Below are positions 12,288 through 31,036 of a DNA stretch of 64,000 nt, piece by piece. The position numbers were made by a program, and so were the translations under genes. Below the pieces are notes generated by a model. It worked only from the letters and a program-made list of their open reading frames with translations, was not told the origin of the DNA and did no database searches. Source of the DNA: Candidatus Marinacidobacterium sp. (GTDB lineage Bacteria; Acidobacteriota; Vicinamibacteria; Marinacidobacterales; Marinacidobacteraceae); NCBI GenBank assembly GCA_965204755.1, contig OZ242011.1:2368001-2432000 (forward strand), written 5' to 3'. Each line of letters begins with the position of its first letter. Within the stretch, counting starts at the first letter, position 1.

Positions 12288-13178
12288 ATGGCCGACGACG
12301 CCCAGCCGCAGCCCGGGATCCTCGCCGAGATCCCGGCGCACGCCCGCTTCCTGACCTTCCGGCGGCGTCCCTCCGGGCCGATGCCGCGGGAGCCGCTCGC
12401 GCGGCTCGGCGACGCGGCCGCCGACCTCGGCGCTGTCGTGGGGATCGGCCTCTCGCTCGTTCGGGAATGCGGCGCCGAGATCCCGGGGCTCCGGACCCTG
12501 CCCGCAGTGGACGGCCCGGGGTTCTCCGTCCCCTCGACTCCGGCGGCGCTCTGGGTGTGGCTCCGGGCGGACGAGCCGGGGCCGCTCGTCCACCGGACCG
12601 GAGAAACGACCGGATTGCTGGGAGAGGCATTCCGGTTGGAGTCGGCTGTCTCCGCTTTCCGCTACGGGACAGGCCTCGACCTCACCGGCTACGAGGACGG
12701 CACGGAGAACCCGGTCGGTGACGCGGCGAAGGCGGCGGCGGTGGTGTCCGGCGCCGGGCCGGGTCTCGACGGCTCCTCCTTCGTCGCCGCGCAGCAGTGG
12801 GTCCACGACCTCGACCGGTTCTCCGCGTTCCCTCCCGAGGTGCAGGATCGGATCATCGGCCGTCGGAGGAGCGACAACGAGGAACTGCGCGACGGCCCGG
12901 ACGCGGCCCATGTGAAGCGGACGGAACAGGAGGCGCCCGACCCGCCGGCGTTCCTGCTCCGCCGCTCCATGCCGTGGGCCGACGGCGAGCGCGCCGGACT
13001 GGTCTTCGTCGCCTTCGGGAGCAGCCTCGCGCCGTTCTCCTACCATCTCGACCGCATGACCGGCGCGGAGGACGGGATCGTGGACCACCTGTTCCGCTTC
13101 ACCCGCCCGTCCACCGGCGCCTTCTTCTGGTGCCCGCCGCTCGCGGACGGACGCCTCGACTTCTCCCGCCTCCGCTGA
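12288..13178 (+). CDS. Dyp-type peroxidase
   Basis: GYEDGTEN (GXXDG), QQWVHDL, IIGR, AHVKR, LLRRSMPW, FFWCPP; start moved to ATG 12288. Confidence 0.92.
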   Translation: MADDAQPQPGILAEIPAHARFLTFRRRPSGPMPREPLARLGDAAADLGAVVGIGLSLVRECGAEIPGLRTLPAVDGPGFSVPSTPAALWVWLRADEPGPLVHRTGETTGLLGEAFRLESAVSAFRYGTGLDLTGYEDGTENPVGDAAKAAAVVSGAGPGLDGSSFVAAQQWVHDLDRFSAFPPEVQDRIIGRRRSDNEELRDGPDAAHVKRTEQEAPDPPAFLLRRSMPWADGERAGLVFVAFGSSLAPFSYHLDRMTGAEDGIVDHLFRFTRPSTGAFFWCPPLADGRLDFSRLR

Positions 13179-13197
13179 ACGAGCGCCCCCTCGCAGA

Positions 13198-13689
13198 GTG
13201 CCCGCAGCCAGGAGGCTGACCGCCGCCGCCGTCTTCGCCGGCGCCCTCTTCGCGCTCCCCGAACCGGCTGCCGCCCAGACCGGCTGCGAACTGCTCTACC
13301 TGCAGTGGGAGGGCTGCGCGACCGAGTGCGAGTCCTACTACGAAAACCGCGTGGCGCGGGCGGTCTGCCGCGCCTGGTGCCTGGTCGAGTATGTCCGCGA
13401 CTATTGGACCTGCGAGTCCAATGTGGAGGCTTCCGAGGAGTCGGAAGCAGCGCCCGCGGAGGAGGGCGCCCGGGAGCCGGACGAGGAGCGCGGCGCGTCC
13501 CGGATCGGCCGGCCGGGTGACCGGGGCGGCGGCCCATCGTCCGGGGCGGCCCCCGGCGTGGTCAGCCGCCGGCCGGTCGGCGCCGGCCGCGCCGCCTTCC
13601 GTCGAGCGCCGGGGAAGGCCCCGCGCTGCGGAAGGTTGACCAGGTCCCTCATCTCGAGCGCCACATCCCGGTCCGCCGGCGGCGCCTGA
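13198..13689 (+). CDS. hypothetical secreted cysteine-rich protein
   Basis: Signal peptide ending AAA-Q, then six Cys spaced C-x9-C-x3-C-x12-C-x3-C-x10-C; low-complexity C-terminal part. Confidence 0.55.
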   Translation: MPAARRLTAAAVFAGALFALPEPAAAQTGCELLYLQWEGCATECESYYENRVARAVCRAWCLVEYVRDYWTCESNVEASEESEAAPAEEGAREPDEERGASRIGRPGDRGGGPSSGAAPGVVSRRPVGAGRAAFRRAPGKAPRCGRLTRSLISSATSRSAGGA

Positions 13690-13754
13690 GCGGCGTCCCG
13701 GCCGTCTCCCGACCCTCTCGACACACCCGGGCGAACGCCTCGGCCGCGCGCCTC

Positions 13755-14453
13755 GTGAGCGAATCCCGCGCCCGCCGGCTGGCGGCGGAGTTCCTCGGAA
13801 CCGCCGGCCTCCTCGCCGCGATCATCGGCTCCGGCATCATGGCCGAGACGCTCTCCGGCGGCAACGACGGCGTGGCGCTCATCGGCTGCACCGCCGCCAT
13901 CGGCGCCGCCTTGGTCGTCCTGATCTGGCTGTTCCTCCCGGTATCCGGCTGCCACATCAACCCGGCGGTCACGCTGGCCCTGCTGCTCCGCCGCCGCATC
14001 GCCCCGGCGGACGCCGCCGCCTATGTGGCGGTCCAAGCCGCCGGCGCCGTCGCCGGGATGCTGGCCACCCACGCCATGTTCGACCTGCCGCTGCTGCAGG
14101 CAGCCACCACCGTCCGCACCGGCCCGGGCCAGTGGTTTTCCGAGTTCGTTGCCACCGTCGGCCTCCTCGCCACCATCTTCGGCGCCGCCCGCTTCCGTCC
14201 CCAAGCCCTCGCCCCGGCGGTCGGCCTCTACATCTTCGCCGCCTGCTGGTTCACCGCTTCCACTTCCTTCGCCAACCCGGCGGTCACCCTCGCCCGCAGT
14301 TTCACGGACACTTTCTGCGGCATCCGCCCCGCCGACGCCCCGCCGTTCGTCCTGATGCAGATCTTCGGCGCGACCGCCGCCGCCCCCCTCTCCGCCTGGT
14401 TGTGGCCGGACGCAGCGGCTACTCTCCGTTCTTCCCCGGCCCGCGCCGACTGA
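13755..14453 (+). CDS. MIP/aquaporin family channel (AqpS-like)
   Basis: AEFLGT, SGCHINPAVT and FTASTSFANPAVTLAR (two NPA boxes). Confidence 0.9.
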   Translation: MSESRARRLAAEFLGTAGLLAAIIGSGIMAETLSGGNDGVALIGCTAAIGAALVVLIWLFLPVSGCHINPAVTLALLLRRRIAPADAAAYVAVQAAGAVAGMLATHAMFDLPLLQAATTVRTGPGQWFSEFVATVGLLATIFGAARFRPQALAPAVGLYIFAACWFTASTSFANPAVTLARSFTDTFCGIRPADAPPFVLMQIFGATAAAPLSAWLWPDAAATLRSSPARAD

Positions 14454-14467
14454 CCCGCGACACCAGC

Positions 14468-17400
14468 ATGGCATCCCCTTCGGCCTCGACACTCGCTGCC
14501 GTCGCTCTTTCTCATCCTCTCGTCCTTCGAGCCGCCTGGATGAGAATCGACAGGTGGTACCGCGCCGGCAACATCGCACCGGAGCCGGAACTTTCCCGCT
14601 GGCGGCTCCATCCGGAGGCGGAACTTCGGTCACTTGGCGAGGCCCTGCGCAACGGAATTTGGGCGCCATCCGCATGGCAGCAACTGCCGTACCCGAAGAA
14701 GGGCAAGCGTCTCCGCCATTTCGTCTGGCCAACGGTGAGAGATCAAGTCGCGTTCATGGCGCATATGGTGTTGCTCGGCCCACTGATCGATAGCCGGCTC
14801 AATCCGTTCGTCTTCGGAAATCGGTGGTATCGGTCGATCATTTGGGACCGGTCCCAATCGTCTCGCTCCAGATGGACACCCCTCGGGTACCCGCTGCTTA
14901 CCTCTCGTAGTTACTTGCCGTACGCCCGTGATCACGGCTTGTACCGACGAGTCGCGCACTGGACGGTTTCTCGCATGACTGGCGCACCGGTCGAAGAGAA
15001 CGACTACGGCGGACGCGTTCACCATCCGGATGACTACAATGAGGACTTCCTTCCCGAATGGACCCGCCGAGAGTGGTGGGCGGGGGGGTTGGAGGGCAAA
15101 CACCGTGCGTACTGGGCGGCCCTCGATATCGAGATGGCGTACCCGTCCGTCAATCTAGATTACCTCCGCAACTGTCTTCTTCAGGCGCTGGCCGCGGATC
15201 CTCTCGACGAAAACATCTTCAGGGGATATCCGGATGTCACACTTGCCGCTCTTCGGGATGAAGAGTCTCCTCGATCGATCGCCCGGCGACTCATCGTCGC
15301 ACTTCAGAAAGTGCGCGTGCGGCACGGGGACATCCTCAACGCTTCGTGGAAACCCTCCCACATCCGAGCAAGGCTGCCGTCGCTTGATGAGGATATAGGT
15401 ATTCCTACGGGTCTGGCGATTTCTGGTGTTCTTCTGAATGTGGCACTTGCCCCTACGGACAAGAGCATCTACCGCTATTTGAAGACGACGACGGGTGCCT
15501 ACCGTGGTGCGGTTCTGCGATTCGCCGACGACACGTACGTCTTCTCACGATCGCTTGACGGTCTCTTGACATTGATGGAGGTTGTAGCACGGGACACGGC
15601 TCATCCCAAAGAAGCGTCGTGGCTTCCTGATCGGCCGGACGGGCGTGGCGATTCCGAAAGCGCACTCTTGCGTTCGCGGTCAACATTGGGGACGAATCTC
15701 TATCTCAACTTGGAGAAGATCCGGCCCGATGCCGTGAAGCGCCTCGTCGAAAGAGTGTGTCGGAGCGAAGGTTGGTCCAAGTGCGACGACTGTGAGGCGT
15801 TGAAACCTGATGATTCAATGACGAAGACGACTCCAGTGGATCGGTGGTGGCGCACAAACGAGGACAGCGTCGACCGTCAACTGCGGAATGCGCTTTTCCG
15901 CGCGAGTGTCGGACCGGAATCCGCAGGGCCATTCGTCACGGCGCTCGTTGAGAGAATGAGCGAGATCGGATGGGGAGGCCTTCGTGAGCGCTTCGGGGAG
16001 GGGGCGCGGGAGCGGCTTGGTCGGCTCCACGAGTTGGCGCGCTTCGACATCGCGGACGAGCAGGTGCGTGCCGATACTCGAAGAGTGTTCGCAGCAAATC
16101 GGTTGGTGGCGGCATGGCTGTCGGACGAAGGCGGCACCGCCGTCGCAGAGATCCGCCACATTCGAGACTCGCTGGCGCACGTGCTGGATCGCACGCCGTG
16201 GAAGTTCGCGCTCTGGACAGCCGTAGTTCGAGCCGCCGCGCGACTGTCCTATGTCGGCGCTGAACGAACGGAAAATGCCAAGGAAGATGACCGCAACGGG
16301 GGCGTTTGGCTCGAATCTCAGCTGCGGCGCATTGCGCGACCGCCCTCTGCAGACGACCATCTGTCGTGGGCCAAGCGGTGGCCTGAGGATCTCCATGACT
16401 CCCACGATCGAGGTGAGGGTTGGGCGGATCTCTATCTCTCATTCCATCGCGCAGCCTTCTGGCAAGGATTGCGGACCGTTCTCATCGAACTCTGGGAGCA
16501 TTTGCGACGGACCGGCGGCGGAGAGGCTGAGGCGGCCCACGAGTCGGGGCCATCGCCGGATTCGTGGTGTTTCAGGGCCATCCCGGAGGGTCGCCATCGG
16601 GAAACACTTGACCTTCTGGGTACGACAGACAGATGGGCCCGCGTGCTGTACGGAGCGGACGCAGAGGCGAGTGATCGATTGGCGCACCGATGGGAGATGG
16701 ATCAGTTCGTGGCGGCTGTTCTATCGACGGTGCCTCGATCCCGAGCGGCGGTGGCATGGCTCAGGTGCCAGCCGCCGGGAGAGATCTTGCGCGTTCCGTC
16801 AGCCCATCCAGGACTCGGGACTCTAACGGAGAGAATCCTCCGGCGTGCGAATCGATTGAGCGTCCGAGGTGGTCAGGTCGCGGGCCTCTCTGCTGGCGCT
16901 CTCGCTCATCTTGGTCTTGCGGGCACGGATCGCAAGACGGGGAGAGTTCTCTATCGGAAGGGTGTGCCACGAATCCACGACTGGAGTCGTGATCGAGACA
17001 GGATTGTCCGGATGAGCCAAGTACTGGGCTGCTCCGATGCCATCAGTGCTGCGCAGATGGAATTGGAGGTTGACACTCCGTCGGAGTTGATCCAGAAGAT
17101 CGGCGACGCGCCGTTTCGACTTGATGCCTATGGTGCGGTGCGTCGGACCCTACTTGGAGGTGAGAGCAAGTCGACTCAGGCTGTCGAGTCGCTACATCGG
17201 CTCTTGTGGGGCAGGCCAGGAGATTCGAGGGACTTGTCGTCTTGGCCGCTCTGTCCGTGGGACATGCCCGCTGTCGGTCTTCCCTATCAGATCGCCGTTG
17301 GTCTTTTCCTCAATGCGCCGAATCCGACTCCAGAATGGCGACCGGTCCACGGGCCGCTATCGTGGTTCTTCCACAAGGGCAGTGCGATCCTCGCGGCTGG

Positions 17401-18979
17401 ACGACAACTGCAGTTTCGTTCAGTGTCGGAGGCACCGCCATCAGTCGCTTCCCCCTCAACGAATCGCGACAGCAGAGTCGGTGTGGGCAAGACTCGTACA
17501 TGGGACGTGCCCCCGCACGCCGCCTTTTTTCGCCCCTTCCTTCATGACGCTCCGACCGAAATTGACTCGATTGGGTACGACACGTACTGTGACGTTCTCC
17601 TTCTTCTGACGGCCCTGGATGGTAGCGAAGGAATTCTGGACGTGATCCAAGAGAGTGGCACCGGAAGTCTTCCTTTCAGGGAACGCTGGGCATGGCGGTC
17701 GCGCATTCATCTGAGTAACTGCGCATGGAACGCGATAGAGAGTGCGATTCGGTGGTCAGAGAAACCGGCAGCGGAACCGGTGGACAAGGAAGGAGGATCA
17801 CTCGATGTCAAGGGCGCCCTGCGGAACTCGATACCCGATGGCGTTGCTACTCTGTCGTCGGATGCCTTCGCCGTGGAACGCGTAGACCTGCATGTTGATT
17901 CGGGCGCGGGAGTTGAGATCTCAAGGGCGATACGGACGGGGTCGTGGCCGGACCAGACGCTACCAGACGAGTTGAGAATCGCCACATCGCCCGACTCTGA
18001 CAAGGTGCGAGTGAGACTCGGGCAAGTCATCGCTAAGGTTGAGAAGCAGGCACGCAACTCGCTTAGCGTAACGACGGCGACCCGGAACGCGACCATGGAG
18101 CAAGTCTTTAGGGCCTTCTTGGCGCCAAGTTACGGAGGAGCATCTTCATCGCCGGACTTGGTTGTATTGCCGGAACTCACGGTACCGAACGAGGAAGTTC
18201 GGTCTCTGCGCAGCTGTGTCATGGAGACCGGGATGGCCGCATTGACCGGGCTCTACTGGCGTACCTTGGCACCGGTGTATCCGGCGAGTGGAAGCGTACG
18301 GAGTCAGAGACACTGGATCGTGAATGAGGCGGAACTTGCCGTGCCGGTCGGCTACCACGATCGCGGGCCGACGAGTATCCGTTGGTACCGCGTACGAAAA
18401 CCCCTCCCCTCACACATGGAAGACGGTCGGGCTCAGGCGTTGCAGGCGGAGTACGGAGGCGCTTGGAAGATGTTGCCCGGTCGACGTTGGTATCGTTTCG
18501 TGCATTCTCAGTGGGGCGATTTCGCCGTCGCCATCTGTTCCGACCTCATCGACGCGTCGCCATGGCGGACGTTGCGAGGTGAGATCCTCCATCTGTTCGT
18601 CGTTGCGTACAATCGGGATGTGAACCTCTACGAAGTACTGACTTGGGCTCGCGCGTACGAGAATTACGCCAATCTGGTGGCTGTCAACAGCGGGGACTAC
18701 GGTGGCTCAGTGGCGTGGACTCCACGGCGTCGGCTCGGTCGCGAGTTGGCGCAACTAAGGGGTCGAAAGATGAGTGTGCTGGCCGATGTGTCGCTTCCGG
18801 TGACGGAGCTCCTGATGGAACAGTTGCGCGGTGTCAGGAAGGCAGTTTGTCGGACCGCAGCGGAGTGGGAGACGGGAGAGACGACCGAGGCGGGAGGATA
18901 CAAATCGCCGCCGCCCGGTTTCAAGCGCCGCGCCGTTCAAACGAGCGACAGTCTGAAAGACGAGTCCCCAGACGAGTGA
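14468..18979 (+). CDS. reverse transcriptase-nitrilase fusion, 1503 aa (DRT type 1 / UG1-like defence RT)
   Basis: RT motifs: PYPKKGKRLR, VRDQVA, FGNR, LDIEMAYPSV (D220), GIPTGL (G311), RFADD (352-355). C-terminal carbon-nitrogen hydrolase triad LPEL (E1236), RVRK (K1311), AICSD (C1357); ends KSPPPGF. Start placed at ATG 14468, after the aquaporin stop. Confidence 0.9.
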   Translation: MASPSASTLAAVALSHPLVLRAAWMRIDRWYRAGNIAPEPELSRWRLHPEAELRSLGEALRNGIWAPSAWQQLPYPKKGKRLRHFVWPTVRDQVAFMAHMVLLGPLIDSRLNPFVFGNRWYRSIIWDRSQSSRSRWTPLGYPLLTSRSYLPYARDHGLYRRVAHWTVSRMTGAPVEENDYGGRVHHPDDYNEDFLPEWTRREWWAGGLEGKHRAYWAALDIEMAYPSVNLDYLRNCLLQALAADPLDENIFRGYPDVTLAALRDEESPRSIARRLIVALQKVRVRHGDILNASWKPSHIRARLPSLDEDIGIPTGLAISGVLLNVALAPTDKSIYRYLKTTTGAYRGAVLRFADDTYVFSRSLDGLLTLMEVVARDTAHPKEASWLPDRPDGRGDSESALLRSRSTLGTNLYLNLEKIRPDAVKRLVERVCRSEGWSKCDDCEALKPDDSMTKTTPVDRWWRTNEDSVDRQLRNALFRASVGPESAGPFVTALVERMSEIGWGGLRERFGEGARERLGRLHELARFDIADEQVRADTRRVFAANRLVAAWLSDEGGTAVAEIRHIRDSLAHVLDRTPWKFALWTAVVRAAARLSYVGAERTENAKEDDRNGGVWLESQLRRIARPPSADDHLSWAKRWPEDLHDSHDRGEGWADLYLSFHRAAFWQGLRTVLIELWEHLRRTGGGEAEAAHESGPSPDSWCFRAIPEGRHRETLDLLGTTDRWARVLYGADAEASDRLAHRWEMDQFVAAVLSTVPRSRAAVAWLRCQPPGEILRVPSAHPGLGTLTERILRRANRLSVRGGQVAGLSAGALAHLGLAGTDRKTGRVLYRKGVPRIHDWSRDRDRIVRMSQVLGCSDAISAAQMELEVDTPSELIQKIGDAPFRLDAYGAVRRTLLGGESKSTQAVESLHRLLWGRPGDSRDLSSWPLCPWDMPAVGLPYQIAVGLFLNAPNPTPEWRPVHGPLSWFFHKGSAILAAGRQLQFRSVSEAPPSVASPSTNRDSRVGVGKTRTWDVPPHAAFFRPFLHDAPTEIDSIGYDTYCDVLLLLTALDGSEGILDVIQESGTGSLPFRERWAWRSRIHLSNCAWNAIESAIRWSEKPAAEPVDKEGGSLDVKGALRNSIPDGVATLSSDAFAVERVDLHVDSGAGVEISRAIRTGSWPDQTLPDELRIATSPDSDKVRVRLGQVIAKVEKQARNSLSVTTATRNATMEQVFRAFLAPSYGGASSSPDLVVLPELTVPNEEVRSLRSCVMETGMAALTGLYWRTLAPVYPASGSVRSQRHWIVNEAELAVPVGYHDRGPTSIRWYRVRKPLPSHMEDGRAQALQAEYGGAWKMLPGRRWYRFVHSQWGDFAVAICSDLIDASPWRTLRGEILHLFVVAYNRDVNLYEVLTWARAYENYANLVAVNSGDYGGSVAWTPRRRLGRELAQLRGRKMSVLADVSLPVTELLMEQLRGVRKAVCRTAAEWETGETTEAGGYKSPPPGFKRRAVQTSDSLKDESPDE

Positions 18980-19036
18980 GGAGAGGTGCCTTCTCGGCCC
19001 AGACTCTGCCGCTGGTGCTTCGCTTTGGCCCGTGGC

Positions 19037-20464
19037 TCAGCCGGCCGAGGCGGCGGGAACGCGCTGAGCCCGGTCCTCCACCAAGTGGCGGATGGTGTTG
19101 GCGTAGTAGTCCACGAAGTCGCGGCGGGGGGCGAGGACGCGGAGGCGGCCGTCTTCGCTGGCGACCATCTTCCGTTGGACGAGTAACGCCAGGCCCTGCT
19201 CCACGGCGGTCTTCCAGTCCGGGCGGGCGATGTCCGGTTCGCCGGGGCGCCGCGCCACGGACTCCAGGATCCGGAAGGCGCGGGCTTCGGCTTCGGGGGG
19301 CGTGATCCCGTCGGGATCGTGTTCGCGGATGACCGCGGCCATGAGCGGCACCGGGAGGATCGGCATGATCGCGGCGATTCGTTCCATGAGCGCGCCCGCC
19401 AACTCTTCGACCGCGGTGAAACGCGCCTCGCGACTCGCCGTCCGCGGATCGAGGGCGGCGGCGGCGAGCCAATCGCGCAGCGAAACCGGGGCGCCCACGC
19501 TGATCGTCGCCCGCCCGAACGGGCGCCAGCGGCGGCGCAGGTAGAGCCACGACTGCTGGAGGAAGAAGCCGAGGCTCGCCCGCCAGGTGCGGATGCGGGT
19601 GGGAGACCGCCCTTTCACTTTCAGCAGGTGGAGGTTCTTGTCCTCCATGACGCGGTCGTAGTTGACGGCCACCGGGACGAGCGCCACATCGCGTTCGGCG
19701 TCGGGATCGAAGGCGCGCACCGTGTAGTCGAGCAAGCCGAGGCGCGGCCGGCGCAGCGCGCCGTCTTCGCTGAACCGGCCTTCGATGAAGAACGCCTGCG
19801 GGACGCCGCCGCGGGCGGCGTGTTTGACATGGGCGGCCAGCACCGCGCGGTAGAGCGGGTTTCCCGAGCCGCGCCGCACGAAGAACCCGCCGAGGCCGCG
19901 CAGCATCGGCTCGAGCGGCCAGTAGCGCGCCCATTCCCCGACCGCGAACGAGAGGACCGCGCGGTCGGCGAGCGAAGTGGCGGCGATCAGGTAATCCAAG
20001 TTGCTCCGGTGGTTGAGCACGAACACCGGGGTCGAGTCCTTCGCCGCCCGGGAGAGCGCCGCTTCGTCGGCGTAACGGACCCGCACCGAGAACACGCGGC
20101 TCAGCGCGCGCCGCACCGGGCCGTGGAGGAAACGGAAGACGAAACCGGAACTCAGCGAGGGGACGATTTCGCGGGCGTAACCGCGGGCTTCGTGGAGCAC
20201 CTCGCACTGCTCGATGCCGGTCTCCTTCGCCCTTCGGACGACCGCCGCCTGCACTTCGGGCTCCACCATGAGCAGGTCCGCCGCGGCGACCGGCGAGATC
20301 AACTGGAACGCCGAGGGTTGGATCGCCGACCGCGCCCGGTGGAACCCGTGGGGGTTCTGCCGTTCCAGCCTCCGCCTCAGCAGCGGCCGGAGGACCAGTC
20401 CGTAGGCGCAGCCCAAGACGAGCAGCGCCAGCACGAAGGCCGGAACCGGAACGGTCTGGAACAT
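19037..20464 (-). CDS. glycerol-3-phosphate / 1-acyl-glycerol-3-phosphate acyltransferase (PlsB-like)
   Basis: NHRSNLD (HxxxxD), GGFFVRR, FFIEGRFS, VPVAVNYDRV. Confidence 0.85.
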   Translation of the reverse strand: MFQTVPVPAFVLALLVLGCAYGLVLRPLLRRRLERQNPHGFHRARSAIQPSAFQLISPVAAADLLMVEPEVQAAVVRRAKETGIEQCEVLHEARGYAREIVPSLSSGFVFRFLHGPVRRALSRVFSVRVRYADEAALSRAAKDSTPVFVLNHRSNLDYLIAATSLADRAVLSFAVGEWARYWPLEPMLRGLGGFFVRRGSGNPLYRAVLAAHVKHAARGGVPQAFFIEGRFSEDGALRRPRLGLLDYTVRAFDPDAERDVALVPVAVNYDRVMEDKNLHLLKVKGRSPTRIRTWRASLGFFLQQSWLYLRRRWRPFGRATISVGAPVSLRDWLAAAALDPRTASREARFTAVEELAGALMERIAAIMPILPVPLMAAVIREHDPDGITPPEAEARAFRILESVARRPGEPDIARPDWKTAVEQGLALLVQRKMVASEDGRLRVLAPRRDFVDYYANTIRHLVEDRAQRVPAASAG

Positions 20465-20496
20465 CGGGGCGCCGCGCGCTCAGGCCCGGGTCGGGG

Positions 20497-22266
20497 TCAG
20501 CGGAACTCCGGGACCCGCACCTCCGCCTCGATCCCGGCGAGCAGTCGCGAACGGCGCTCCCCGAGCGACTCCGACAAACGCTCTGCGGGAACGATCTCGT
20601 CGGCGTCTTCCCCGCGGATGCGAACTTCCACGCCGCCCCGTTCCAGCGCCCGACGGGACACCACGACCCGCAGCGGAATGCCGATCAGGTCGGCGTCCGA
20701 GAACTTGACGCCGGCGCGGTCGCCGCGGTCGTCGTAGAGCACCTCCAGACCGTCCGCCCGAAGCCGCTCGTAGATCCGGTCCGCTTCGCGCGCGGCGTCG
20801 TCGTCCGCCGCCGACTTCCCGCCCAGCGCGATCAGGTGCACCTCGAAGGGAGCGACGCTCATCGGCCAGACCAGGCCGCGCTCGTCGTGGTGCTCTTCGG
20901 CGACGCAGGCCAGCAGCCGACCGGAGCCGATCCCGTAGGACCCCATCCAGATCGGCCGCTGCTCCCCGTCCTCGGCGATGTAGCGGGCGCCGGCGGCGTC
21001 GCCGTAACGCGTGCCCAACTGGAAGATGTTCCCGACTTCCACGCCGCGCGAAGTCCGGAGCGGCTCGCCGCACCGGGCGCAGGCATCCCCGTCCCCGGCC
21101 GCGGCGATGTCGCCGGTGTGCTGCGGCCGGTAGTCGCGTCCGGCGTTGACCCCGCGGAGGTGGAAGCCGGCTTCGTTCGCGCCGCTGACCAGGTTCGGGG
21201 AGGACACCGCCGACTCGTCGCAGACCACGATCCCGGCGGTCATCCCCACCGGCGAGGCATACCCCGGAACCGCGCCGGCCGCCCGGATCGCTTCGTCTTC
21301 GGCGGGTCGCAGCCAAGCCGCGCCGACCGTGTTCGCCACCTTGGTCTCGTTCACTTCCAGGTCGCCGCGCACGACGGCGACCACCAACTCTTCGCGTTTC
21401 CCGCCGTCGAGTCCGGCGGTGAAGAAGACCGCCTTCGCGGTCCGGCTCTCCGGGACTTCCAGCAACTTCGCGAGCGCCGCGATCGTGGAAGCGCCGGGCG
21501 TTTCGACCCGCTCCATCGGGAGCGGTTCTTCCGACTCCGCCGGCGGCCGGGCGAACTCCGCCACCTGGCGGTTCGCCGCGTAACCGCAGCAGTCGCAGAG
21601 CACCAGGGTGTCTTCGCCCACCGGCGTCAGGTACATGAACTCGTGCGCCCGGCTGCCGCCCATCATTCCCACATCGGAACCGACTGCCACGGTGGGGACG
21701 CCGCAGCGCCCGAAGATGCGGAAGTAGGCCTCGTAGTGCGCCCGGTACTGGCGCTCCAAACCCTCGGCGTCCCGGTCGAGCGTGTACGAGTCCTTCATCG
21801 TGAACTCGCGGACGCGGATCAGCCCGGCGCGCGGGCGGGCGTCGTCCCGGAACTTGGTCTGGATGTGATAGACGAGTTGCGGCAGTTGCCGCCAGGAACG
21901 GATCTCCGTCCGGCAGAGGTCGCCGACGACCTCTTCGTGCGTCATGGCGAGCACCAGGTCGCTCGCCTTCCGATCCCGGAACCGGGCCATCTCCGGGCCG
22001 ACCGCGTCGTACCGGCCGGACCGCTTCCAGATCTCGGCCGGGTGCACCACCGGCATGGTCATCTCCTGACCGCCGATCCGGTTCATCTCCTCGCGCAGGA
22101 TGTTTTCGATCTTGGTGATCGAGCGGTGCGCGAGCGGCAAGTAGGAATAGAGCCCCTGTCCGAGTTGGCGGATGAACCCGGCGCGGGTCAGCAGCGCGTG
22201 ACTGGCCGCCTGGGCACCGGCCGGGGCTTCGCGCAGGGTGCCGCCGAAATGGGTGGAATAGCGCAT
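20497..22266 (-). CDS. proS: proline--tRNA ligase
   Basis: LAMTHEE, QTKFRDDARPRAGLIRVREFTMKDSY, editing (INS) domain, EVGNIFQLGT, MGSYGIG, DDRGDRAGVKF. Confidence 0.97.
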   Translation of the reverse strand: MRYSTHFGGTLREAPAGAQAASHALLTRAGFIRQLGQGLYSYLPLAHRSITKIENILREEMNRIGGQEMTMPVVHPAEIWKRSGRYDAVGPEMARFRDRKASDLVLAMTHEEVVGDLCRTEIRSWRQLPQLVYHIQTKFRDDARPRAGLIRVREFTMKDSYTLDRDAEGLERQYRAHYEAYFRIFGRCGVPTVAVGSDVGMMGGSRAHEFMYLTPVGEDTLVLCDCCGYAANRQVAEFARPPAESEEPLPMERVETPGASTIAALAKLLEVPESRTAKAVFFTAGLDGGKREELVVAVVRGDLEVNETKVANTVGAAWLRPAEDEAIRAAGAVPGYASPVGMTAGIVVCDESAVSSPNLVSGANEAGFHLRGVNAGRDYRPQHTGDIAAAGDGDACARCGEPLRTSRGVEVGNIFQLGTRYGDAAGARYIAEDGEQRPIWMGSYGIGSGRLLACVAEEHHDERGLVWPMSVAPFEVHLIALGGKSAADDDAAREADRIYERLRADGLEVLYDDRGDRAGVKFSDADLIGIPLRVVVSRRALERGGVEVRIRGEDADEIVPAERLSESLGERRSRLLAGIEAEVRVPEFR

Positions 22267-24841: not shown

Positions 24842-25064
24842 GAAGCGCGGGATCGTAACAGAGCCCCGCCGAGGCTCCGGCTCGAATTCGGTAGCGGCGC
24901 CCGCCTTGGTTGGTTAGAATCAGACCCTAGATGTGGGTGTCTGGTGTGCGTCCCGTGGGTGCTTGGTGGTCGTGTTCCGAGCCGGGTTCGCCCCGCTCCG
25001 CGCCGCACCCCTCGGGCACTGCGCACGAGGCCAGCCACGCGCCGATTCAGGTGAGGAAGCCGCG

Positions 25065-26102
25065 ATGATCAAGGCCATCGATTTCTTCTGCGGAGCGGGA
25101 GGCCTGACGCGGGGGCTTCTCGACGCGAAAGTCTCCGTGGTGGCGGGAGTCGACAACGACCCACGCCTCCGCTTGACCTATGAGCGCAATAACCGACCGA
25201 GCCGTTTCGTCTGTGAGGACATCGCAGAGGTCGACATCGCCGCCCTCCGAGCGGACTTGGCCATCGAGCGTGGTGACGCGACACTCTACGCCGCCTGCAC
25301 GCCGTGCCAGCCGTTCTCATCCCTGAACATATCCAAACGCCCCGATGGCAGGAAATCACTCTTGCTGGAGTTCGCCCGGGTCGTAGCGAACAGCCCTCCC
25401 GACTTCGTCATCGTGGAGAATGTCCCGGGGCTTCACAGCGCTGTCGGGCGCGAAATCTACGCTCAATTCATGAGTGTCCTGTCGAAATACGGCTTCCGGG
25501 AGTCCTCCGATCTGCTGGATGCGAAGGACTACCGCGTACCGCAGACCCGCAAGCGTTTCATCTTGGTGGCATCGCGACACGGTCGCCCGGATTTGCCCGC
25601 GCCGACGACAAGAACCTGTCCGGAGACCGTCGCCCGCCATATCGGGCGTTACCCGCGGATCGCTGACGGCGAACGATCTACGGTGGTCCCCAACCACCAC
25701 GCGAGACGATTGCCTCCGCACCACAAGCGGATCGTGGAGGCCGTTCCACTCGATGGGGGAAGCCGTCGCGATGTGACAGACACCTCGATTCTGCTCAAAT
25801 GCCACCGGCGTCGACCAGCCGCCCACAAGGATGTTTTCGGCCGGATGGCGTGGCAGGCGCCGGCCCCGACATTGACCTGTCGATGCACCGATGTCTATTG
25901 TGGCCGCTTCATCCACCCGGAGCAGCACCGGGGAATCTCTCATCGCGAAGCGGCCGCGCTTCAGACTTTCCGTGACGACTACGAGTTCTACGGCGAGTCG
26001 TTTCACGAGAGGTCGCGACAGATCGGAAACGCTGTGCCGGTCAGACTCGCCGCAGCCTTGGGTGCGGTATCTCTACAGTTCTTGGACGGATGTCGCCACT
26101 GA
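25065..26102 (+). CDS. DNA (cytosine-5)-methyltransferase
   Basis: DFFCGAGG (motif I), PCQPFS (IV), ENVPG (VI), PQTRKR (VIII), REAAALQTF (IX), QIGNAVP (X); RBS GAGGA before ATG 25065. Confidence 0.93.
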   Translation: MIKAIDFFCGAGGLTRGLLDAKVSVVAGVDNDPRLRLTYERNNRPSRFVCEDIAEVDIAALRADLAIERGDATLYAACTPCQPFSSLNISKRPDGRKSLLLEFARVVANSPPDFVIVENVPGLHSAVGREIYAQFMSVLSKYGFRESSDLLDAKDYRVPQTRKRFILVASRHGRPDLPAPTTRTCPETVARHIGRYPRIADGERSTVVPNHHARRLPPHHKRIVEAVPLDGGSRRDVTDTSILLKCHRRRPAAHKDVFGRMAWQAPAPTLTCRCTDVYCGRFIHPEQHRGISHREAAALQTFRDDYEFYGESFHERSRQIGNAVPVRLAAALGAVSLQFLDGCRH

Positions 26103-26119
26103 CCCGTGACCCGAGCGCC

Positions 26120-28051
26120 ATGAGCAGCAGGAAGCCCTTCGAGATGGAATTCGACATCTCGACGATCAAGCATCTGGGTCTCCAGATGTATTCCACGCTC
26201 CCACCCGTTATCGGCGAACTGATCGCCAACGCTTGGGACGCGAACGCCAAGAGGGTCGAGATCACGATTCCGGAGACCGCCATCGGCGACGACGACACGG
26301 AGATCGTCCTCTCGGACGACGGTTTGGGGATGTCGGACAGTGACATACGCGACAAATACCTCATCGTCGGACGAGATCGACGTGAGGCCGAGAGTTGCGA
26401 AGCATCGCCATCTCCGTTCTGCCGGAAAATCATGGGCAGAAAGGGCATCGGCAAGTTCTCTGCGTTCGGAATAGCGCGCGAAATCGAGATCGAGAGCATC
26501 CGAGACGGCGATCACAGCCGGTTCGTAATGGACTACGACAAGATGCTTGAAGCCGTCAACGACCGGCGGGCCAGTTTCGAGCCTTTGCCCCCGACTGACC
26601 AGGTACGGACCGGCACCCGGATCGCACTCCGGAAACTGACGAAGTTCCGAAAGCGCGGCATCGCAGTGGATGCGTTGCGTCGCGGCATCGCCAGGCGCTT
26701 TTCGGTCGTCGCGGCCAAGAACGACTTCGAAGTCGTAGTAAATGAGCAAGCGATCACTGTGGAGGAACGTGACCTGAAGCGACTCCTGGATGTCGACATG
26801 GCGGGAAAGCAGTTCCTGTGGTCGTATGACAACGAGGAGATCGAACCAGAGACAGGGTGGACGGTATCGGGGTGGATTGGCGCCTTGAAGGGTACGACTC
26901 GTTCTGGCGACAGTGTTGACCGTGGAGTCTCCGTCATGGCGAGGGGTAAACTCGTTCAAGAGCCGTTCTGGTTCAAGGCGGAAGTAGGCCAACAGTTCGC
27001 ACTGTCCTATCTCGTCGGCGAACTTCACGCGGAGTTCGTCGACGGCGACGATGACACGATTGGCACGAGCAGGAACACGCTGGTGTGGGACGCCGAGCCC
27101 AACCAGAGACTGATGGAGTGGGGTCAGAAGGAAATGAAGAAGATCGCCCGCGAGTGGTCCGATCGGCGCAGCCGAGACCAAGAGCAACGGCTTGAAGACA
27201 ACGAGCACTACCGGCAGTTCAAGAATCGCGCCACCGACATGACCAACCGGAGGGGTTTCAAGTTGGCGGATAAACTCGTACGCGAAGCGATCCGAAGGAA
27301 TCCGACAGCGGAAGTCAAGGAGGTGGAACCCGTCATCAAGATGGCGGTGGACTTCGTGGAGTTCGACTCATTCTTGGCGATCGCCCATGACTTGGTTGAT
27401 TCCGACTTGTCGGACATCGGGAGGTTGGTCGAACTGTTTCGGGAGTGGGAAGTTGTGGAGGCACTGGAAATGGCGCGCGTGACGGAAGGTCGAATCAGCA
27501 CGATCGGCCTTCTGGATCGTATGATCGAGGAGAACGCCCTTGAAACGCCGAGACTACACAAGTTCCTGAAGAGGTTCCCTTGGGTCATCGATCCCAAATG
27601 GACCTTGGTGGCCGACGAAGTGTCGTACACGAAACTTCTTCGTGACAAGTTTCCTGACAATGCCGAAATTGACAGGAATAGACGGATTGACTTCCTCTGT
27701 GTTCATGAGGGTACGAACTTGGTCGTCGTTGAAATCAAGCGTCCCGCCTCCAAGGTGTCGAACAAGGAGTTGGAACAGATTGAGGAGTACGTGAACTTCG
27801 CGCGTAGCCGAACGGAAGAGACGACCGACCCGGACAGTCGCTACGAAGATGTCGTTGGCTATCTCCTCTGTGGAGGTGTAGCGGACACGTGGAATGCGCG
27901 GCAGAAGGTGAAGAATCTTCGATCAGCGCGTATCTATGTGCGGAAGTACGGGGAACTTCTGGACATGGTGAAGGAATTGCATTCCGATTTCCTCAAGAAA
28001 TATAAGGACCTGAGGGGCGAACGCGGAGGGGAGCAGAGTGCGAGGAGTTGA
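26120..28051 (+). CDS. MORC/GHKL ATPase fused to a C-terminal PD-(D/E)XK nuclease (putative restriction component)
   Basis: ELIANAWDA, DDGLGM, GRKGIGKFS, GT GHKL motifs; C-terminal RRIDFL...VVVEIKRP; alternative start at 26090. Confidence 0.85.
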   Translation: MSSRKPFEMEFDISTIKHLGLQMYSTLPPVIGELIANAWDANAKRVEITIPETAIGDDDTEIVLSDDGLGMSDSDIRDKYLIVGRDRREAESCEASPSPFCRKIMGRKGIGKFSAFGIAREIEIESIRDGDHSRFVMDYDKMLEAVNDRRASFEPLPPTDQVRTGTRIALRKLTKFRKRGIAVDALRRGIARRFSVVAAKNDFEVVVNEQAITVEERDLKRLLDVDMAGKQFLWSYDNEEIEPETGWTVSGWIGALKGTTRSGDSVDRGVSVMARGKLVQEPFWFKAEVGQQFALSYLVGELHAEFVDGDDDTIGTSRNTLVWDAEPNQRLMEWGQKEMKKIAREWSDRRSRDQEQRLEDNEHYRQFKNRATDMTNRRGFKLADKLVREAIRRNPTAEVKEVEPVIKMAVDFVEFDSFLAIAHDLVDSDLSDIGRLVELFREWEVVEALEMARVTEGRISTIGLLDRMIEENALETPRLHKFLKRFPWVIDPKWTLVADEVSYTKLLRDKFPDNAEIDRNRRIDFLCVHEGTNLVVVEIKRPASKVSNKELEQIEEYVNFARSRTEETTDPDSRYEDVVGYLLCGGVADTWNARQKVKNLRSARIYVRKYGELLDMVKELHSDFLKKYKDLRGERGGEQSARS

Positions 28052-28102
28052 GAGACCGGCGCGCGGCTCAGTCTTCTGGGCGGAGTTGCATCTAGGAGAG
28101 CC

Positions 28103-29809
28103 TCAGCGCCAGTCGGCGTGGTCCGGGCCCTTCCAGATTCCGAGGGCCTCGTCCGCGAGTCTTGTTCCGCGATCCGCGATCTCCTTCGGGCCCCAGGTGG
28201 CGTAGCGGTTGAAGTCCTCGTTGAGGCAGATCTTTGCCTTCGTGAGGAGTTTCTTCTTTTCCTCGTACGGGGCGTTGCCGAGGGCAGCGTTCACTTTGCC
28301 GGCGAGGAGCGCGAGGTTGCCGGGAGTGTTCACCCACTGACGGTGGAGAGCCTCCCAGTTGTCTCCGAGCACCTTCTGCCAAGCGAAGCACCTGGGGTTC
28401 TTCGCATCGGAGATGGACTTTGGCATCACATGCTCGACATGGATTCCCGGGGGTCCGTCTTGGACGGTGTAGCCGGCGGCTGTTTGGCGTGCACGCTCCA
28501 AGCCGCGCACAACGGCGTCCATGAAACTCGCCTTGGCGAACGAGTGCTCGACGAAGCGGTCACGAAACTCGTCATCCTCGGGCCAGTCTTCGGTGGCCAA
28601 ACGGCCTCGCAGCCAGCCGACGACCTGCGCATCTACCTTGAAGCCGAGATCGCAGAGTCCCGGGAGAGTGCGCCATTGGCGCCTGGAGTCGTGGTTACAG
28701 AGGTGCCCTCGAACCAAGTAACTGGCCAGCATGTCCAGGGCTCGGTCACGGTCGCTCTCAGAGATGAGGCCGGTTCCCTCCGCGTAGGCGTCCAAGACCG
28801 CCAGGGCGACGGGGAAGACGGCAGAAACGCCCGGTCGCCGGACGCGATCCAGCACATCGCGAAGCGATGGGTCCGCGGTCGTTCGACGCCCGCGGACCAA
28901 GAGATACCGCTCCTTGCGGGGTCGGAGGAGATCGGTAACTTCGGTGCCGGAGCGCTCGTCCATGGCCTTCTTGAATCGGCGATAGACCTTGGTCTTCGGG
29001 ATGTTTTTCTGTTCGTCGCAGGTCAGAAGATGCTGGAAGAAGGAATCGAACAGTGGCATGTCGAGAGTATTCGATCCCTTCTTCTCGAAGCCGCTCTCGA
29101 TGATCTGCCAATGGTCTTGATGGAACTGGTCTTGCGATTCCGGGCGCTCCTTCGCAAAGACATGGCTTCGGATCAGATCGGACTGACTCAACTGGACGCG
29201 CTTGGCGTTCAGATCTTCGAAGGCCTGAGTGATGGCGTCCGGAGTGTCGAGGACGACCCAGACGACCTGCAGCCTACGGAGAACCGCGCGGCCGATTTCG
29301 GTCGGCGAGAGAGTGTCGAGTCCCTTCAACTGTCGCAAGAAGTAGCGGTAGGCGCGGAGCATGTTGCTCGTGGTTCCGCGCACGCGCTCTCTGCGGGCGA
29401 TGTCCCGGTAGATGTGCGCATCGGTGTACCGCGGCACAAGTCGAGGCACATTGAACTCGGTGTTCCACACATTGGGGTGGAACTCTCGGCAGGCCTCCTC
29501 GTCCTCCTTGGCGATCGTGTCCCGTACGGCGCAGAGCAGGAGCGACAGGGTTGTCAAGCGCTGCTGGCCGTCCACGATCAGATAGGTGGGCAGTCCGGGG
29601 CGCAGGCTCTTGATCAGCGTGATGACGCCGATGAAGTGGAGGTCCCGATGATCGCGCTCGCAGGCTTTGACGACATCCTCCCAGATGCCTTCCCAATGCC
29701 CAGGCGTCCAGACGTACTCCCGCTGGTGCGGCGGAGTCTCGAAGTGCGCGTTCGTGGTCAACAAGCCGTCCACGGGCGTCGTGTGGGCATAGGTACCGAA
29801 GCCAGTCAT
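28103..29809 (-). CDS. GmrSD-type (DUF262 + DUF1524/HNH) restriction protein
   Basis: PPHQREYVW, IVDGQQRLTT, FEDLNAK; C-terminal VEHVMPK, GNLALL...N HNH-like motif. Confidence 0.9.
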   Translation of the reverse strand: MTGFGTYAHTTPVDGLLTTNAHFETPPHQREYVWTPGHWEGIWEDVVKACERDHRDLHFIGVITLIKSLRPGLPTYLIVDGQQRLTTLSLLLCAVRDTIAKEDEEACREFHPNVWNTEFNVPRLVPRYTDAHIYRDIARRERVRGTTSNMLRAYRYFLRQLKGLDTLSPTEIGRAVLRRLQVVWVVLDTPDAITQAFEDLNAKRVQLSQSDLIRSHVFAKERPESQDQFHQDHWQIIESGFEKKGSNTLDMPLFDSFFQHLLTCDEQKNIPKTKVYRRFKKAMDERSGTEVTDLLRPRKERYLLVRGRRTTADPSLRDVLDRVRRPGVSAVFPVALAVLDAYAEGTGLISESDRDRALDMLASYLVRGHLCNHDSRRQWRTLPGLCDLGFKVDAQVVGWLRGRLATEDWPEDDEFRDRFVEHSFAKASFMDAVVRGLERARQTAAGYTVQDGPPGIHVEHVMPKSISDAKNPRCFAWQKVLGDNWEALHRQWVNTPGNLALLAGKVNAALGNAPYEEKKKLLTKAKICLNEDFNRYATWGPKEIADRGTRLADEALGIWKGPDHADWR

Positions 29810-29818
29810 GTGTGTTCC

Positions 29819-30820
29819 TTACGATGTGTTGTCTGATCGGAGGGGTTCTGAGAAGAGCGCTGCCGGGCGCCGAATGTCGGCTAGCCGCCGACCGGCGAAG
29901 GCGCAGTAGTCGGAGTGCTGCTCGATGCCGACCGACAGGCGGCCAGCGGACAAGGCCGCGGCGAGCGTCGTGCCGGATCCGGCGAAGGGATCGAGCACGA
30001 TGTCGCCGGGGAGCGAGAAGAGGTGGATGAACCAAGTCGGAAGGGCGAGTGGAAATGCGGCGGGATGTCCGGTGTTGGAGCACTCCGAGGCCAAGTGGAG
30101 GACATTCGTCGGATTGACTTGGCGCTTGCCCTGCCAGTTCTGGACACGGACGCCGGTTCCGCTCCCCGTGTTGGAGGTGCGGCGGGTCCGATCGTTCGTT
30201 CCGAGTTTCTCGAGGCGACTCGACGCCCATTCACCTATCGGTTGCTGCACGGCCTCCTGATACATCGAAAACGTGGGGCGGCAGTTGAATTGGAGGAGGC
30301 GTTCCCAACTATCGCGGAAGCGGTTCGGCCAGTGGCCCGGAGTGGAGTTCTTCTTGTGCCAGATGAATTCCTCCGTCCAGCACCAGCCGTCCTCCTGCAG
30401 GGCGAGGATGAGCCGGAGAACATAGGTGTGCCGCTGACGAGCGACGACACGCTCCTTGATGTTGAGGATGAAGGTGCCGTCGTTCCTCAGGACGCGCCGC
30501 AGATGGCGCGCCACCGGTACGAACCACTCCACATAGTCGTCCGGGTGCAGTCCGCCGTACTGCCGCCTCCGCGCGTCCGCGTAGGGCGGCGAGGTGACGA
30601 TCAACTGGACCGACCCGTCCGGGAGGTGCGGAAGCACCTCCTCACATTTACCCTCGATCAGCCACCAGCGGGTGGCTGCGAGGGCGTCCCTCAGGTCATC
30701 GTGGGAGACGGCGGTCGCGCGGCCATTCCACCGGCGCGTTCCGGCACGCGATCTGCTGGGGGGGGGGGGGGGGGGGGGGGGGGCACTTCGGGAGGCTGCG
30801 AGGGGGTTGGGACCATACAC
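29819..30820 (-). CDS. site-specific DNA methyltransferase (N4-C/N6-A, beta class)
   Basis: TSPPY precedes HPAAFP and DPFAGSGTT; start uncertain (in-frame GTG 30820 or TTG 30853, both upstream of a poly-C tract). Confidence 0.88.
   Translation of the reverse strand: MYGPNPLAASRSAPPPPPPPPSRSRAGTRRWNGRATAVSHDDLRDALAATRWWLIEGKCEEVLPHLPDGSVQLIVTSPPYADARRRQYGGLHPDDYVEWFVPVARHLRRVLRNDGTFILNIKERVVARQRHTYVLRLILALQEDGWCWTEEFIWHKKNSTPGHWPNRFRDSWERLLQFNCRPTFSMYQEAVQQPIGEWASSRLEKLGTNDRTRRTSNTGSGTGVRVQNWQGKRQVNPTNVLHLASECSNTGHPAAFPLALPTWFIHLFSLPGDIVLDPFAGSGTTLAAALSAGRLSVGIEQHSDYCAFAGRRLADIRRPAALFSEPLRSDNTS
30758..30783. repeat. 26-nt poly-G/C homopolymer in the 5' region of the methyltransferase
   Basis: G run counted directly, 30758-30783; reads as Ala-Pro8 in the minus-strand ORF. 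Confidence 0.9.
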
Positions 30821-31036
30821 CCGCGACGCGCCGAAGGAGCAGAAGTCATCCAAGCGGAGGAGCGGGTGCTGCCGCGCTGTCCGCCGAAGCCGTCGGGCGC
30901 GCCCGCAATATGGGTCAGAGCGAGCCCCTGGCTACACCCCTGGAGGGCGGCGTCGCATTGGGGAGCCGGCGAAAGGCTGGCTAGCGTTTTTCGGCGGGTC
31001 CTGTGAGAATGGACCGCATCGCGAGGAGGCCCGCCA

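Follow-up and report, generated by a model that had tools for sequence, protein, structure and literature searches.

A reverse transcriptase–nitrilase fusion with a kinase-like fold in Candidatus Marinacidobacterium: a candidate single-chain antiphage protein of class 3 UG/Abi

What might a bacterial protein of 1503 residues do that carries a reverse transcriptase (RT) at one end and a nitrilase at the other, and can it be assigned to any of the RT-based antiphage systems already described? The question is raised by a gene at positions 14468..18979, (+) strand, of a 64,000-nucleotide stretch of Candidatus Marinacidobacterium sp. (assembly GCA_965204755.1, contig OZ242011.1, positions 2,368,001 to 2,432,000), hereafter the window, whose coordinates are used throughout. 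The gene encodes an RT core, a helical domain, a kinase-like fold and a nitrilase domain in one chain, as established by its open frame, by full-length relatives and by an independent run. By analogy with DRT1, it probably, if by no means certainly, encodes a single-chain antiphage protein of class 3 of the UG/Abi enzymes, the RT–nitrilase class, with a DRT1-like mechanism and within a family that lies outside current defence models.

DRT1 and two UG5-type enzymes have been described as making protein-primed DNA without a template, with DRT1 requiring its RT, its nitrilase cysteine and its C-terminal tail, and with DNA adducts driving the formation of dormant DRT1 filaments, whose nitrilase substrate is unknown (PMC13275509). 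For UG5-large, the RT and its fused nitrilase are reported to suffice for defence (PMC13436386). In the family described here, both active sites, a loop bearing a hydroxyl residue and the tail are kept, and there is no sign of a flanking RNA; a DRT1 mechanism is therefore favoured, with moderate confidence.

Domains and conserved residues of the fused protein

The RT core, comprising fingers and palm, occupies residues 1-380 (14468..15607; this and all further features of the gene lie on the (+) strand), as delimited by a weak RVT_1 match, the RT_UG6 model, the fold recovered by VIA and its invariant residues. In an alignment of 49 close, full-length relatives, D220 of motif A (15125-15127) and R351, F352 and D354 of motif C (RFADD, residues 351-355, 15518-15532) are invariant, and D355 is kept in at least 90%. 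The initial annotation had regarded FADD as unusual, a view that does not survive comparison within the family, where RFADD is the norm, occurring in 47 of the 49 close relatives and in 81 of a wider set of 116, followed there by RFVDD (22), RYVDD (5), RFADE (5), RFSDD (2) and RYADD (1). Pfam RVT_1 matches below its threshold (E 1.6e-4, residues 218-374). An AlphaFold2 model of residues 1-905, built from the family alignment, reached a predicted local distance difference test (pLDDT) score of 88.6 and a predicted template-modelling score (pTM) of 0.93. Searched with VIA, its RT core matched the RT of a diversity-generating retroelement (DGR; 8ub7_A, Z 20.9, 270 residues aligned, root-mean-square deviation (rmsd) 3.0), a group II intron RT (Z 18.7) and DRT2 (9c0i_A, Z 18.2), and Foldseek agreed on an RT.

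Directly after the palm, residues 381-410 (15608..15697) form a flexible loop with pLDDT values of 52-74, within which a clade-specific insert of 15 residues (383-397) is found. Near the end of this loop stands T409 (15692-15694), a candidate priming hydroxyl: the position is occupied by S, T or Y in 49/49 close relatives and in 52/68 wider ones, and it is followed in the close relatives by N410 (45/49), K417 (49/49) and P420 (49/49). In DRT1, priming takes place on Ser402, within a post-palm loop that is unresolved (PMC13275509), and it is by analogy with this serine that T409 is put forward.

The C-terminal domain, residues ~1176-1486 (17993..18925), has the fold of the nitrilase (carbon–nitrogen hydrolase) superfamily together with its Glu-Lys-Glu-Cys residues, as indicated by the PADLOC model RTasNitrilase, by Foldseek and VIA and by conservation. 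The catalytic residues are E1236 (18173-18175), K1311 (18398-18400), E1318 (18419-18421) and C1357 (18536-18538). E1236, K1311 and C1357 are invariant in the 49 full-length relatives; in a wider set (n=53), E1236 and K1311 are kept in 52/53 and E1318, which completes the tetrad, and C1357 in 51/53. A complete RT core and an E-K-C nitrilase triad had both been read from the sequence at the outset, and indeed the quoted motifs are present and their catalytic residues are conserved in relatives. RTasNitrilase is the best nitrilase model (E 1.3e-38, residues 1208-1487), followed by RT_UG5-nitrilase and then Drt1a, while Pfam CN_hydrolase gives no match to the 1503-residue protein at E up to 1. Structurally, the domain matches the amidase 4izw in Foldseek (E 1.5e-11) and 2e11_A in VIA (Z 23.6, 229 aligned, rmsd 2.5).

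The protein ends in a conserved tail, residues 1478-1487 (18899..18928), which follows the pattern [FY]-K-[AS]-P-P-P-G-[FY]-x-R in the family alignment, with P1483 invariant and K1479, P1481, P1482 and G1484 each kept in at least 90% of the 49 full-length relatives. Tails visibly alike end two DRT1 proteins and one UG5-large protein, and the tail of DRT1 is described as an essential, domain-swapped lid (PMC13275509). A separate observation concerns a Bradyrhizobium plasmid (L054, 3852-5729), where a protein of 625 residues, preceded by an open reading frame (ORF) of 121 residues and with no RT gene annotated beside it, matches the RT-associated nitrilase model at E 6.4e-39; this protein may be an RT-less relative of the RT–nitrilase effector modules.

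Between the two catalytic domains, about 800 residues had been called unassignable in the initial annotation, and this no longer holds in full, as the predicted folds give a helical domain of UG/Abi type and a kinase-like fold at residues 905-1135, residues 583-905 being poorly tested because the wide fold search of the 1-905 model barely covered them. The helical domain, residues 411-900 (15698..17167), is defined by the AlphaFold2 model and by VIA alignment with UG/Abi RTs, and it ends the RT protein in relatives where the system is split. AbiA, AbiK, DRT4, DRT6 and Abi-P2 align over 393-451 residues (Z 11.9-17.3), spanning model residues 8 to 745-822, and so resemble the window protein in RT and helical domain together; they differ from it in their size (~490-600 residues), in having no nitrilase or kinase-like domain, and in a negligible sequence similarity. 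AbiK and Abi-P2 are protein-primed, and template-independent synthesis is the likely mode in this group of enzymes. According to published abstracts, DRT4 needs no template for its synthesis, and in Abi/UG RTs protein priming goes together with synthesis that is template-independent. Within the helical domain, a CxxC pair, C439/C442 (15782-15793), is invariant in 49/49 close relatives and lies in a short hairpin preceded by an invariant W436; these are the only two cysteines nearby, and any metal site would therefore need ligands from elsewhere.

Residues ~905-1135 (17180..17872) form a fold that is kinase-like and probably non-catalytic. In an AlphaFold2 model of residues 900-1503 from the family alignment (pLDDT 90.5, pTM 0.92), the wide VIA search returned Ser/Thr protein kinase domains at every rank from 25 to 50 (145-167 aligned, rmsd 3.4-4.4), with Z values of 7.9-9.0 that are modest by the tool's own caution but belong to uniform matches, which point to a fold of C-lobe type. 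No recognisable kinase catalytic motifs are present, and Pkinase in Pfam gives no match to the 1503-residue protein at E up to 1. Conservation across the wide family is seen in this region at P934, L938, R979, P1016, H1017, G1052, E1054, R1077 and W1087. A search of the ESM Atlas with residues 900-1180 returned one unnamed cluster at 0.78 and no lead.

That these domains form one chain is supported at the level of the gene itself. The frame 14468-18979 runs for 1503 codons without a stop, and full-length relatives share 41-84% identity with its product. As first noted, the single uninterrupted ORF is poorer in guanine plus cytosine (GC) than its neighbours, with values of 0.587-0.639 in 1-kb windows against 0.70-0.76 in the flanks, and with a third-codon-position GC of 0.66 against 0.85-0.93 in neighbouring genes, so that the gene is compositionally foreign. 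A start at 14468 is supported by residues 13-32, which fit the family consensus and the predicted fold (pLDDT 87-98). The identical public protein P0002, of 1479 residues, begins 24 residues later at the second methionine, omitting 14468-14539; since the omitted residues are conserved in the family and confidently folded, the deposited start has probably been placed too late. An independent sequencing run (X3), belonging to a different study, has contigs that span the entire ORF at ~96-98% identity with zero frameshifts, so the long fused frame is not an assembly artefact; their sole length change is an in-frame replacement of 70 letters by 73 others at 18723-18794. This variable patch falls within residues ~1419-1443, just ahead of the conserved tail. 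A scan for promoters and terminators stayed at chance, finding 1 promoter-like site where 0.7 were expected and 4 terminator-like sites where the expectation was 3.6; none of the sequencing runs listed was of RNA.

Relation to known RT groups and the question of a template

The gene had been labelled DRT1/UG1-like, a label that profile comparison does not uphold. The best Drt1a model, PDLC03745, scores 52.7 bits (E 4.1e-15), with its best stretch at residues 1220-1434 and thus confined to the nitrilase part, and PDLC02171 scores 26.8 bits. RT_UG5-nitrilase scores 96.6 bits (E 3.3e-28), its best stretch pairing residues 1181-1490 with profile positions 637-892; RT_UG5_small is not among the PADLOC matches of the window protein. 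Controls were taken from a tblastn search of plasmids, which gave only 5 nitrilase-level matches, of which 3 were used, two DRT1 proteins and one UG5-large protein. Along their full length, the two true DRT1 proteins reach 1171-1890 bits on the Drt1a models, and 1317-1890 bits on the one that gives the window protein 52.7; the true UG5-large protein reaches 1034 bits on its own model, RT_UG5-nitrilase, over profile positions 9-901. Given these full-length controls, the low and nitrilase-only scores of the window protein place it outside both UG1 and UG5-large, and no full-length match to characterised DRT1 models, which would have removed its novelty, was found. Its only solved sequence relative, the DRT1 structure 9yfd, matches within the nitrilase (E 2.1e-7), and when the family alignment was compared with one DRT1 protein by hhalign, again only the nitrilase aligned (probability 95.1%, E 3.1e-8).

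The likeness to DRT1 is thus one of organisation. Each is a single chain that runs from an RT at the N-terminus through a helical middle to a C-terminal nitrilase, conserves the two active sites, carries a disordered loop after the palm and ends in a tail of similar type; like DRT1, the window protein may work without a partner gene. They differ in length (1503 residues against 1200-1300), in motif C (RFADD against RYVDD), in the frequent distribution of the window family over two genes, and in that no small membrane gene of drt1b type adjoins the window gene. UG5-large, known as DRT11 from Sinorhizobium meliloti, shares a fused nitrilase, and UG5-small has its nitrilase in a separate gene; by hidden Markov model comparison, the window nitrilase falls in one RT-associated radiation with theirs. 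The connector of the window protein is far longer than that of DRT11, which has a small DUF4136 connector (PMC13436386), and it contains the kinase-like fold.

The polymerase part matches only UG/DRT models at E <1e-10 in PADLOC, and the best of these is RT_UG6 (55.9 bits, E 6.8e-16, residues 110-368 against profile positions 2-225 of 925). This raises the alternative that the protein is a plain UG6 member onto which a usually separate nitrilase has been fused, the fusion alone being new, a reading judged unlikely but deserving consideration. RT_UG6 is also the best RT model in 6/6 relatives tested and matches 33/36 distant ones, and split relatives, with the nitrilase in a separate downstream gene, make up 16 of 46 loci. 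In the published description (Mestre 2022, PMC9226505), the UG6 RT ends in a kinase-like domain without catalytic residues, and its partners are a nitrilase encoded separately (cluster 285) and a primase of DnaG type (cluster 192); a kinase-like fold with no recognisable catalytic motifs is present here too. Moreover, the window protein shows a weak match to TIGR04416 at residues 50-123 (E 5.8e-10, 38.8 bits against a cut-off of 300), which parallels the group_II_RT_mat signal given by myRT for UG6 (PMC8934634).

Against membership of UG6 stands the reach of the match, for RT_UG6 scores 56-87 bits in the family, never better than E 2.3e-26, with the stretches shown covering at most profile positions 2-364 of 925, as compared with 1034-1890 bits for UG1 and UG5-large members on their own models. 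A true UG6 protein was sought as a control, with 0/401 genomes yielding one at E<=1e-30 and likewise 0/401 at E<=1e-40. The kinase-like fold, unlike that in the UG6 description, sits on the nitrilase side of the split and not at the C-terminus of the RT, and the nitrilase is fused in the window. Nor was a DnaG-type primase partner found, since neither Toprim nor DnaG is one of the 25 families listed for the 68 ORFs that adjoin 34 loci (longest ORF on each side), and neither occurs beside the window gene. A literature search returned no tested function for UG6.

Class 3 of the UG/Abi enzymes is defined by an RT of >1000 residues with a long extension and a fused or associated carbon–nitrogen hydrolase (PMC9226505), and the window protein has this size, a long extension and a fused hydrolase. 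In our reading, the family belongs to class 3 and stands nearest UG6, yet lies outside existing models, and a new subtype is plausible. No model in PADLOC 2.0, Pfam or NCBIfam spans the 1503-residue protein over its full length, and nothing in NCBIfam comes near its cut-offs. A literature search, which brought up only the Mestre classification, a review, myRT, the UG5 paper and papers on the mechanisms of DRT1 and other DRTs, found no account of the family or of an architecture combining RT, kinase-like fold and nitrilase, though supplementary tables may list members under UG6.

Whether the enzyme copies an RNA is a further question. DRT2, DRT3 and DRT9 use an RNA template, and the polymerase could in principle do the same, copying a non-coding RNA or a messenger RNA segment within or far from the gene, with the complementary DNA driving defence. 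This is quite improbable, even though the RT fold is as near to templated enzymes of the DGR, group II intron and DRT2 types as the Z values above indicate, and the fingers resemble those of group II intron RTs in the TIGR04416 match. A search of Rfam over positions 13000-20500 gave no match, two hits at E 0.33 and 0.51 being noise, and no accessory genes at the locus mark it as a group II intron, retron or DGR. The lack of room for a flanking template RNA, remarked upon from the outset, was confirmed: the non-coding flanks measure 14 nucleotides upstream and 57 downstream, the neighbouring genes ending at 14453 and 19037, and comparison of 34 loci and the window reveals no family-wide flank, what similarity there is being confined to subgroups (10 pairs upstream, 12 downstream), as would follow from neighbouring genes held in common. 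The early suggestion of template-independent or protein-primed synthesis gains support by analogy, as it is the mode published for the nearest class.

Fused and split forms and their genomic context

The family is large and widely spread. A word-indexed search recovered 171 relatives among 8000 candidates scored, and an exhaustive search with residues 1-1180 recovered 412 cluster representatives at E<=1e-3, a number that falls to 134 at E<=1e-30. In species-representative genomes, 46 loci were found, every one in an assembly labelled as a metagenome-assembled genome, with titles naming Acidobacteria/Terriglobia-type lineages, Gammaproteobacteria, Longimicrobiales and Gemmatimonadetes, Myxococcales and Polyangiaceae, Spirochaetia, Planctomycetota, Bacillota and others.

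These 46 loci comprise 18 with a single fused frame, 16 with two adjacent or overlapping genes, and 12 that are partial, interrupted or unclear. Split loci encode an RT of ~875-950 residues followed by a protein of ~560-680 residues, the split point corresponding to residue ~900 of the window protein, so that the kinase-like fold travels with the nitrilase. In a tree of the RT part (FastTree, LG, 140 leaves and 844 retained columns, with proteins <800 residues and rows of >30% gaps excluded), the window protein falls in a fused clade of 7 (support 0.996), whose sister (support 1.0) is a split clade of 4, and Fitch parsimony counts 11 changes between fused and split states across the 140 leaves, with the caution that some split calls could be sequencing frameshifts. 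At two loci (L026, 8001-13824, and L028, 7968-13612), the system is interrupted by ~1.1-1.3 kb with an extra ORF of 346-371 residues between the halves of the match, and this may be either an insertion element or an additional gene.

Elsewhere, the family loci are often embedded in BREX-like or restriction clusters. Among 68 flanking ORFs at 34 homologous loci, a set limited to the longest ORF on each side, the families found include MmeI/Eco57I-type methylase (5), PglZ (4), N6_Mtase (4), ResIII/Helicase_C (3), SMC_N/AAA_21 (3) and IS66 transposase (2). Genes directly adjoining the system encode PglZ (L011, L014, L029), a PglX-like methylase (L018, L027), an N6/N4 methylase of ~950 residues (L011, L016) and an SNF2 helicase (L016). 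Two BREX-like arrangements recur, one in which a large AAA-type ATPase and a PglX-like methylase flank the system (L001, L018, L027), and another in which it lies between the ~950-residue N6/N4 methylase and PglZ or the SNF2 helicase (L011, L014, L016, L029).

The window presents a different setting. Upstream lie an NYN-domain gene, a Dyp peroxidase gene and a MIP-family channel gene (13755..14453, (+) strand; Pfam MIP, E 2e-25), which has native GC and is not part of the system; downstream lie a convergent acyltransferase gene (19037..20464, (-) strand; Pfam Acyltransferase and GPAT_C), likewise not part of the system, and genes for ProRS, a Mur-ligase-type protein and AccD. The absence of a dedicated partner gene, noted initially, is thus borne out by housekeeping neighbours in the window and by the finding that no neighbour is constant across loci.

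The chromosomal site itself is informative. Among 40 relatives, real family matches occur in 2, the congener G403 and a contig-end fragment in G409, and three further matches are short and weak (E 1.8e-5 to 7.3e-4). In G403 (L060, G403:C1:110800-119000), a split version occupies the same site in the same orientation, between the MIP and acyltransferase genes. Compared with the window at the amino acid level, the flanks are 88% (MIP) and 86% (acyltransferase) identical, and the RT and nitrilase parts 48% and 46%, which suggests that the system is diverging much faster than its flanks or that alleles have been exchanged at the site. Other genera carry a DUF418 gene or ~0.6 kb at this place instead.

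Such a setting bears on the possibility that the gene does not serve defence at all and either encodes a metabolic nitrilase that retains a relic polymerase domain or belongs to a mobile retroelement. The housekeeping neighbours in the window would suit this interpretation, and even for DRT1 the nitrilase substrate is unknown. It is nevertheless very improbable. The polymerase domain is no relic, because its catalytic residues are invariant across the family; the gene is present in one genomic copy, no integrase or transposase was seen beside it in the window, and no intron or retron RNA match was obtained; and the system is patchy among relatives and recurs inside BREX-like or restriction clusters elsewhere.

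Separately, a second low-GC islet of restriction-type genes lies 6 kb downstream, at 24933-30853. It contains genes for a C-5 cytosine DNA methylase (24933-26102, (+) strand), a HATPase_c_3 protein with weak SduA_C/HSDR_N-like C-terminal matches (26090-28051, (+) strand), a GmrSD type IV restriction enzyme (28103-29809, (-) strand) and an N6/N4 DNA methylase (29819-30853, (-) strand). With this islet close by, the foreign GC of the RT–nitrilase gene, its single genomic copy and its real matches in 2 of 40 relatives are the behaviour of an accessory gene, which favours the antiphage reading.

A possible mechanism and its significance

If the protein acts as DRT1 does, its polymerase domain would make short, template-free DNA primed on a hydroxyl of its own chain, T409 being the candidate. 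The resulting DNA adduct, together with an oligomerising nitrilase domain, would hold the enzyme poised but closed, with the C-terminal tail acting as a lid over the nitrilase site of a neighbouring subunit. Phage infection would then free the nitrilase, whose activity would stop the infected cell or the phage, and the kinase-shaped domain would probably serve as a non-catalytic scaffold or sensor. From the retained residues, the defence-island context of the family and the published behaviour of DRT1, we infer every one of these biochemical steps and the defence phenotype itself.

Several points weigh against this mechanism. Outside the nitrilase, similarity to DRT1 is near nil (phmmer, 7.8 bits in the RT), and 9YFD is not among the structural matches listed for the models, from libraries that end at 2026-04-08. 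The kinase-like domain is given no counterpart in the DRT1 paper, where the word 'kinase' has 0 occurrences (PMC13275509), and such a domain could change the mechanism. In the predicted model, the RT core folds as near to templated RTs of the DGR, group II intron and DRT2 kinds as to template-free ones. T409 is only a guess, because Ser402 of DRT1 is reported not to be conserved among the other class 3 groups (PMC13275509). Lastly, the window gene stands between housekeeping genes and not in a defence island.

A broader proposal is offered more tentatively, as quite possible though short of probable. Here the family would be a separate, unnamed group of class 3 in which the silent kinase-shaped fold and the nitrilase form one effector module, with the kinase-shaped fold sensing infection or nucleotide state and coupling self-primed DNA to the opening of the nitrilase. 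This module would be exchangeable, being either fused or encoded by a second gene, in line with the ~11 state changes, and the system would turn over at fixed sites and inside BREX operons.

For defence by RT–nitrilase enzymes, an explanation has very recently been reached in the case of DRT1 and a working example demonstrated in one UG5 system, and the idea of a single-gene, template-free RT–nitrilase is already published for DRT1. A family in which the DRT1 features of polymerase, nitrilase and tail are retained and a kinase-shaped domain is added would let the DNA-adduct model be tested a second time, on a distant enzyme, and its natural fused and split forms provide a natural dissection of which parts must share one chain. 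With 412 cluster representatives from many phyla, mostly of uncultured bacteria, and with no full-length model in PADLOC, Pfam or NCBIfam, the family is undercounted by defence censuses of environmental genomes, and it represents a sizeable blind spot of current defence catalogues.

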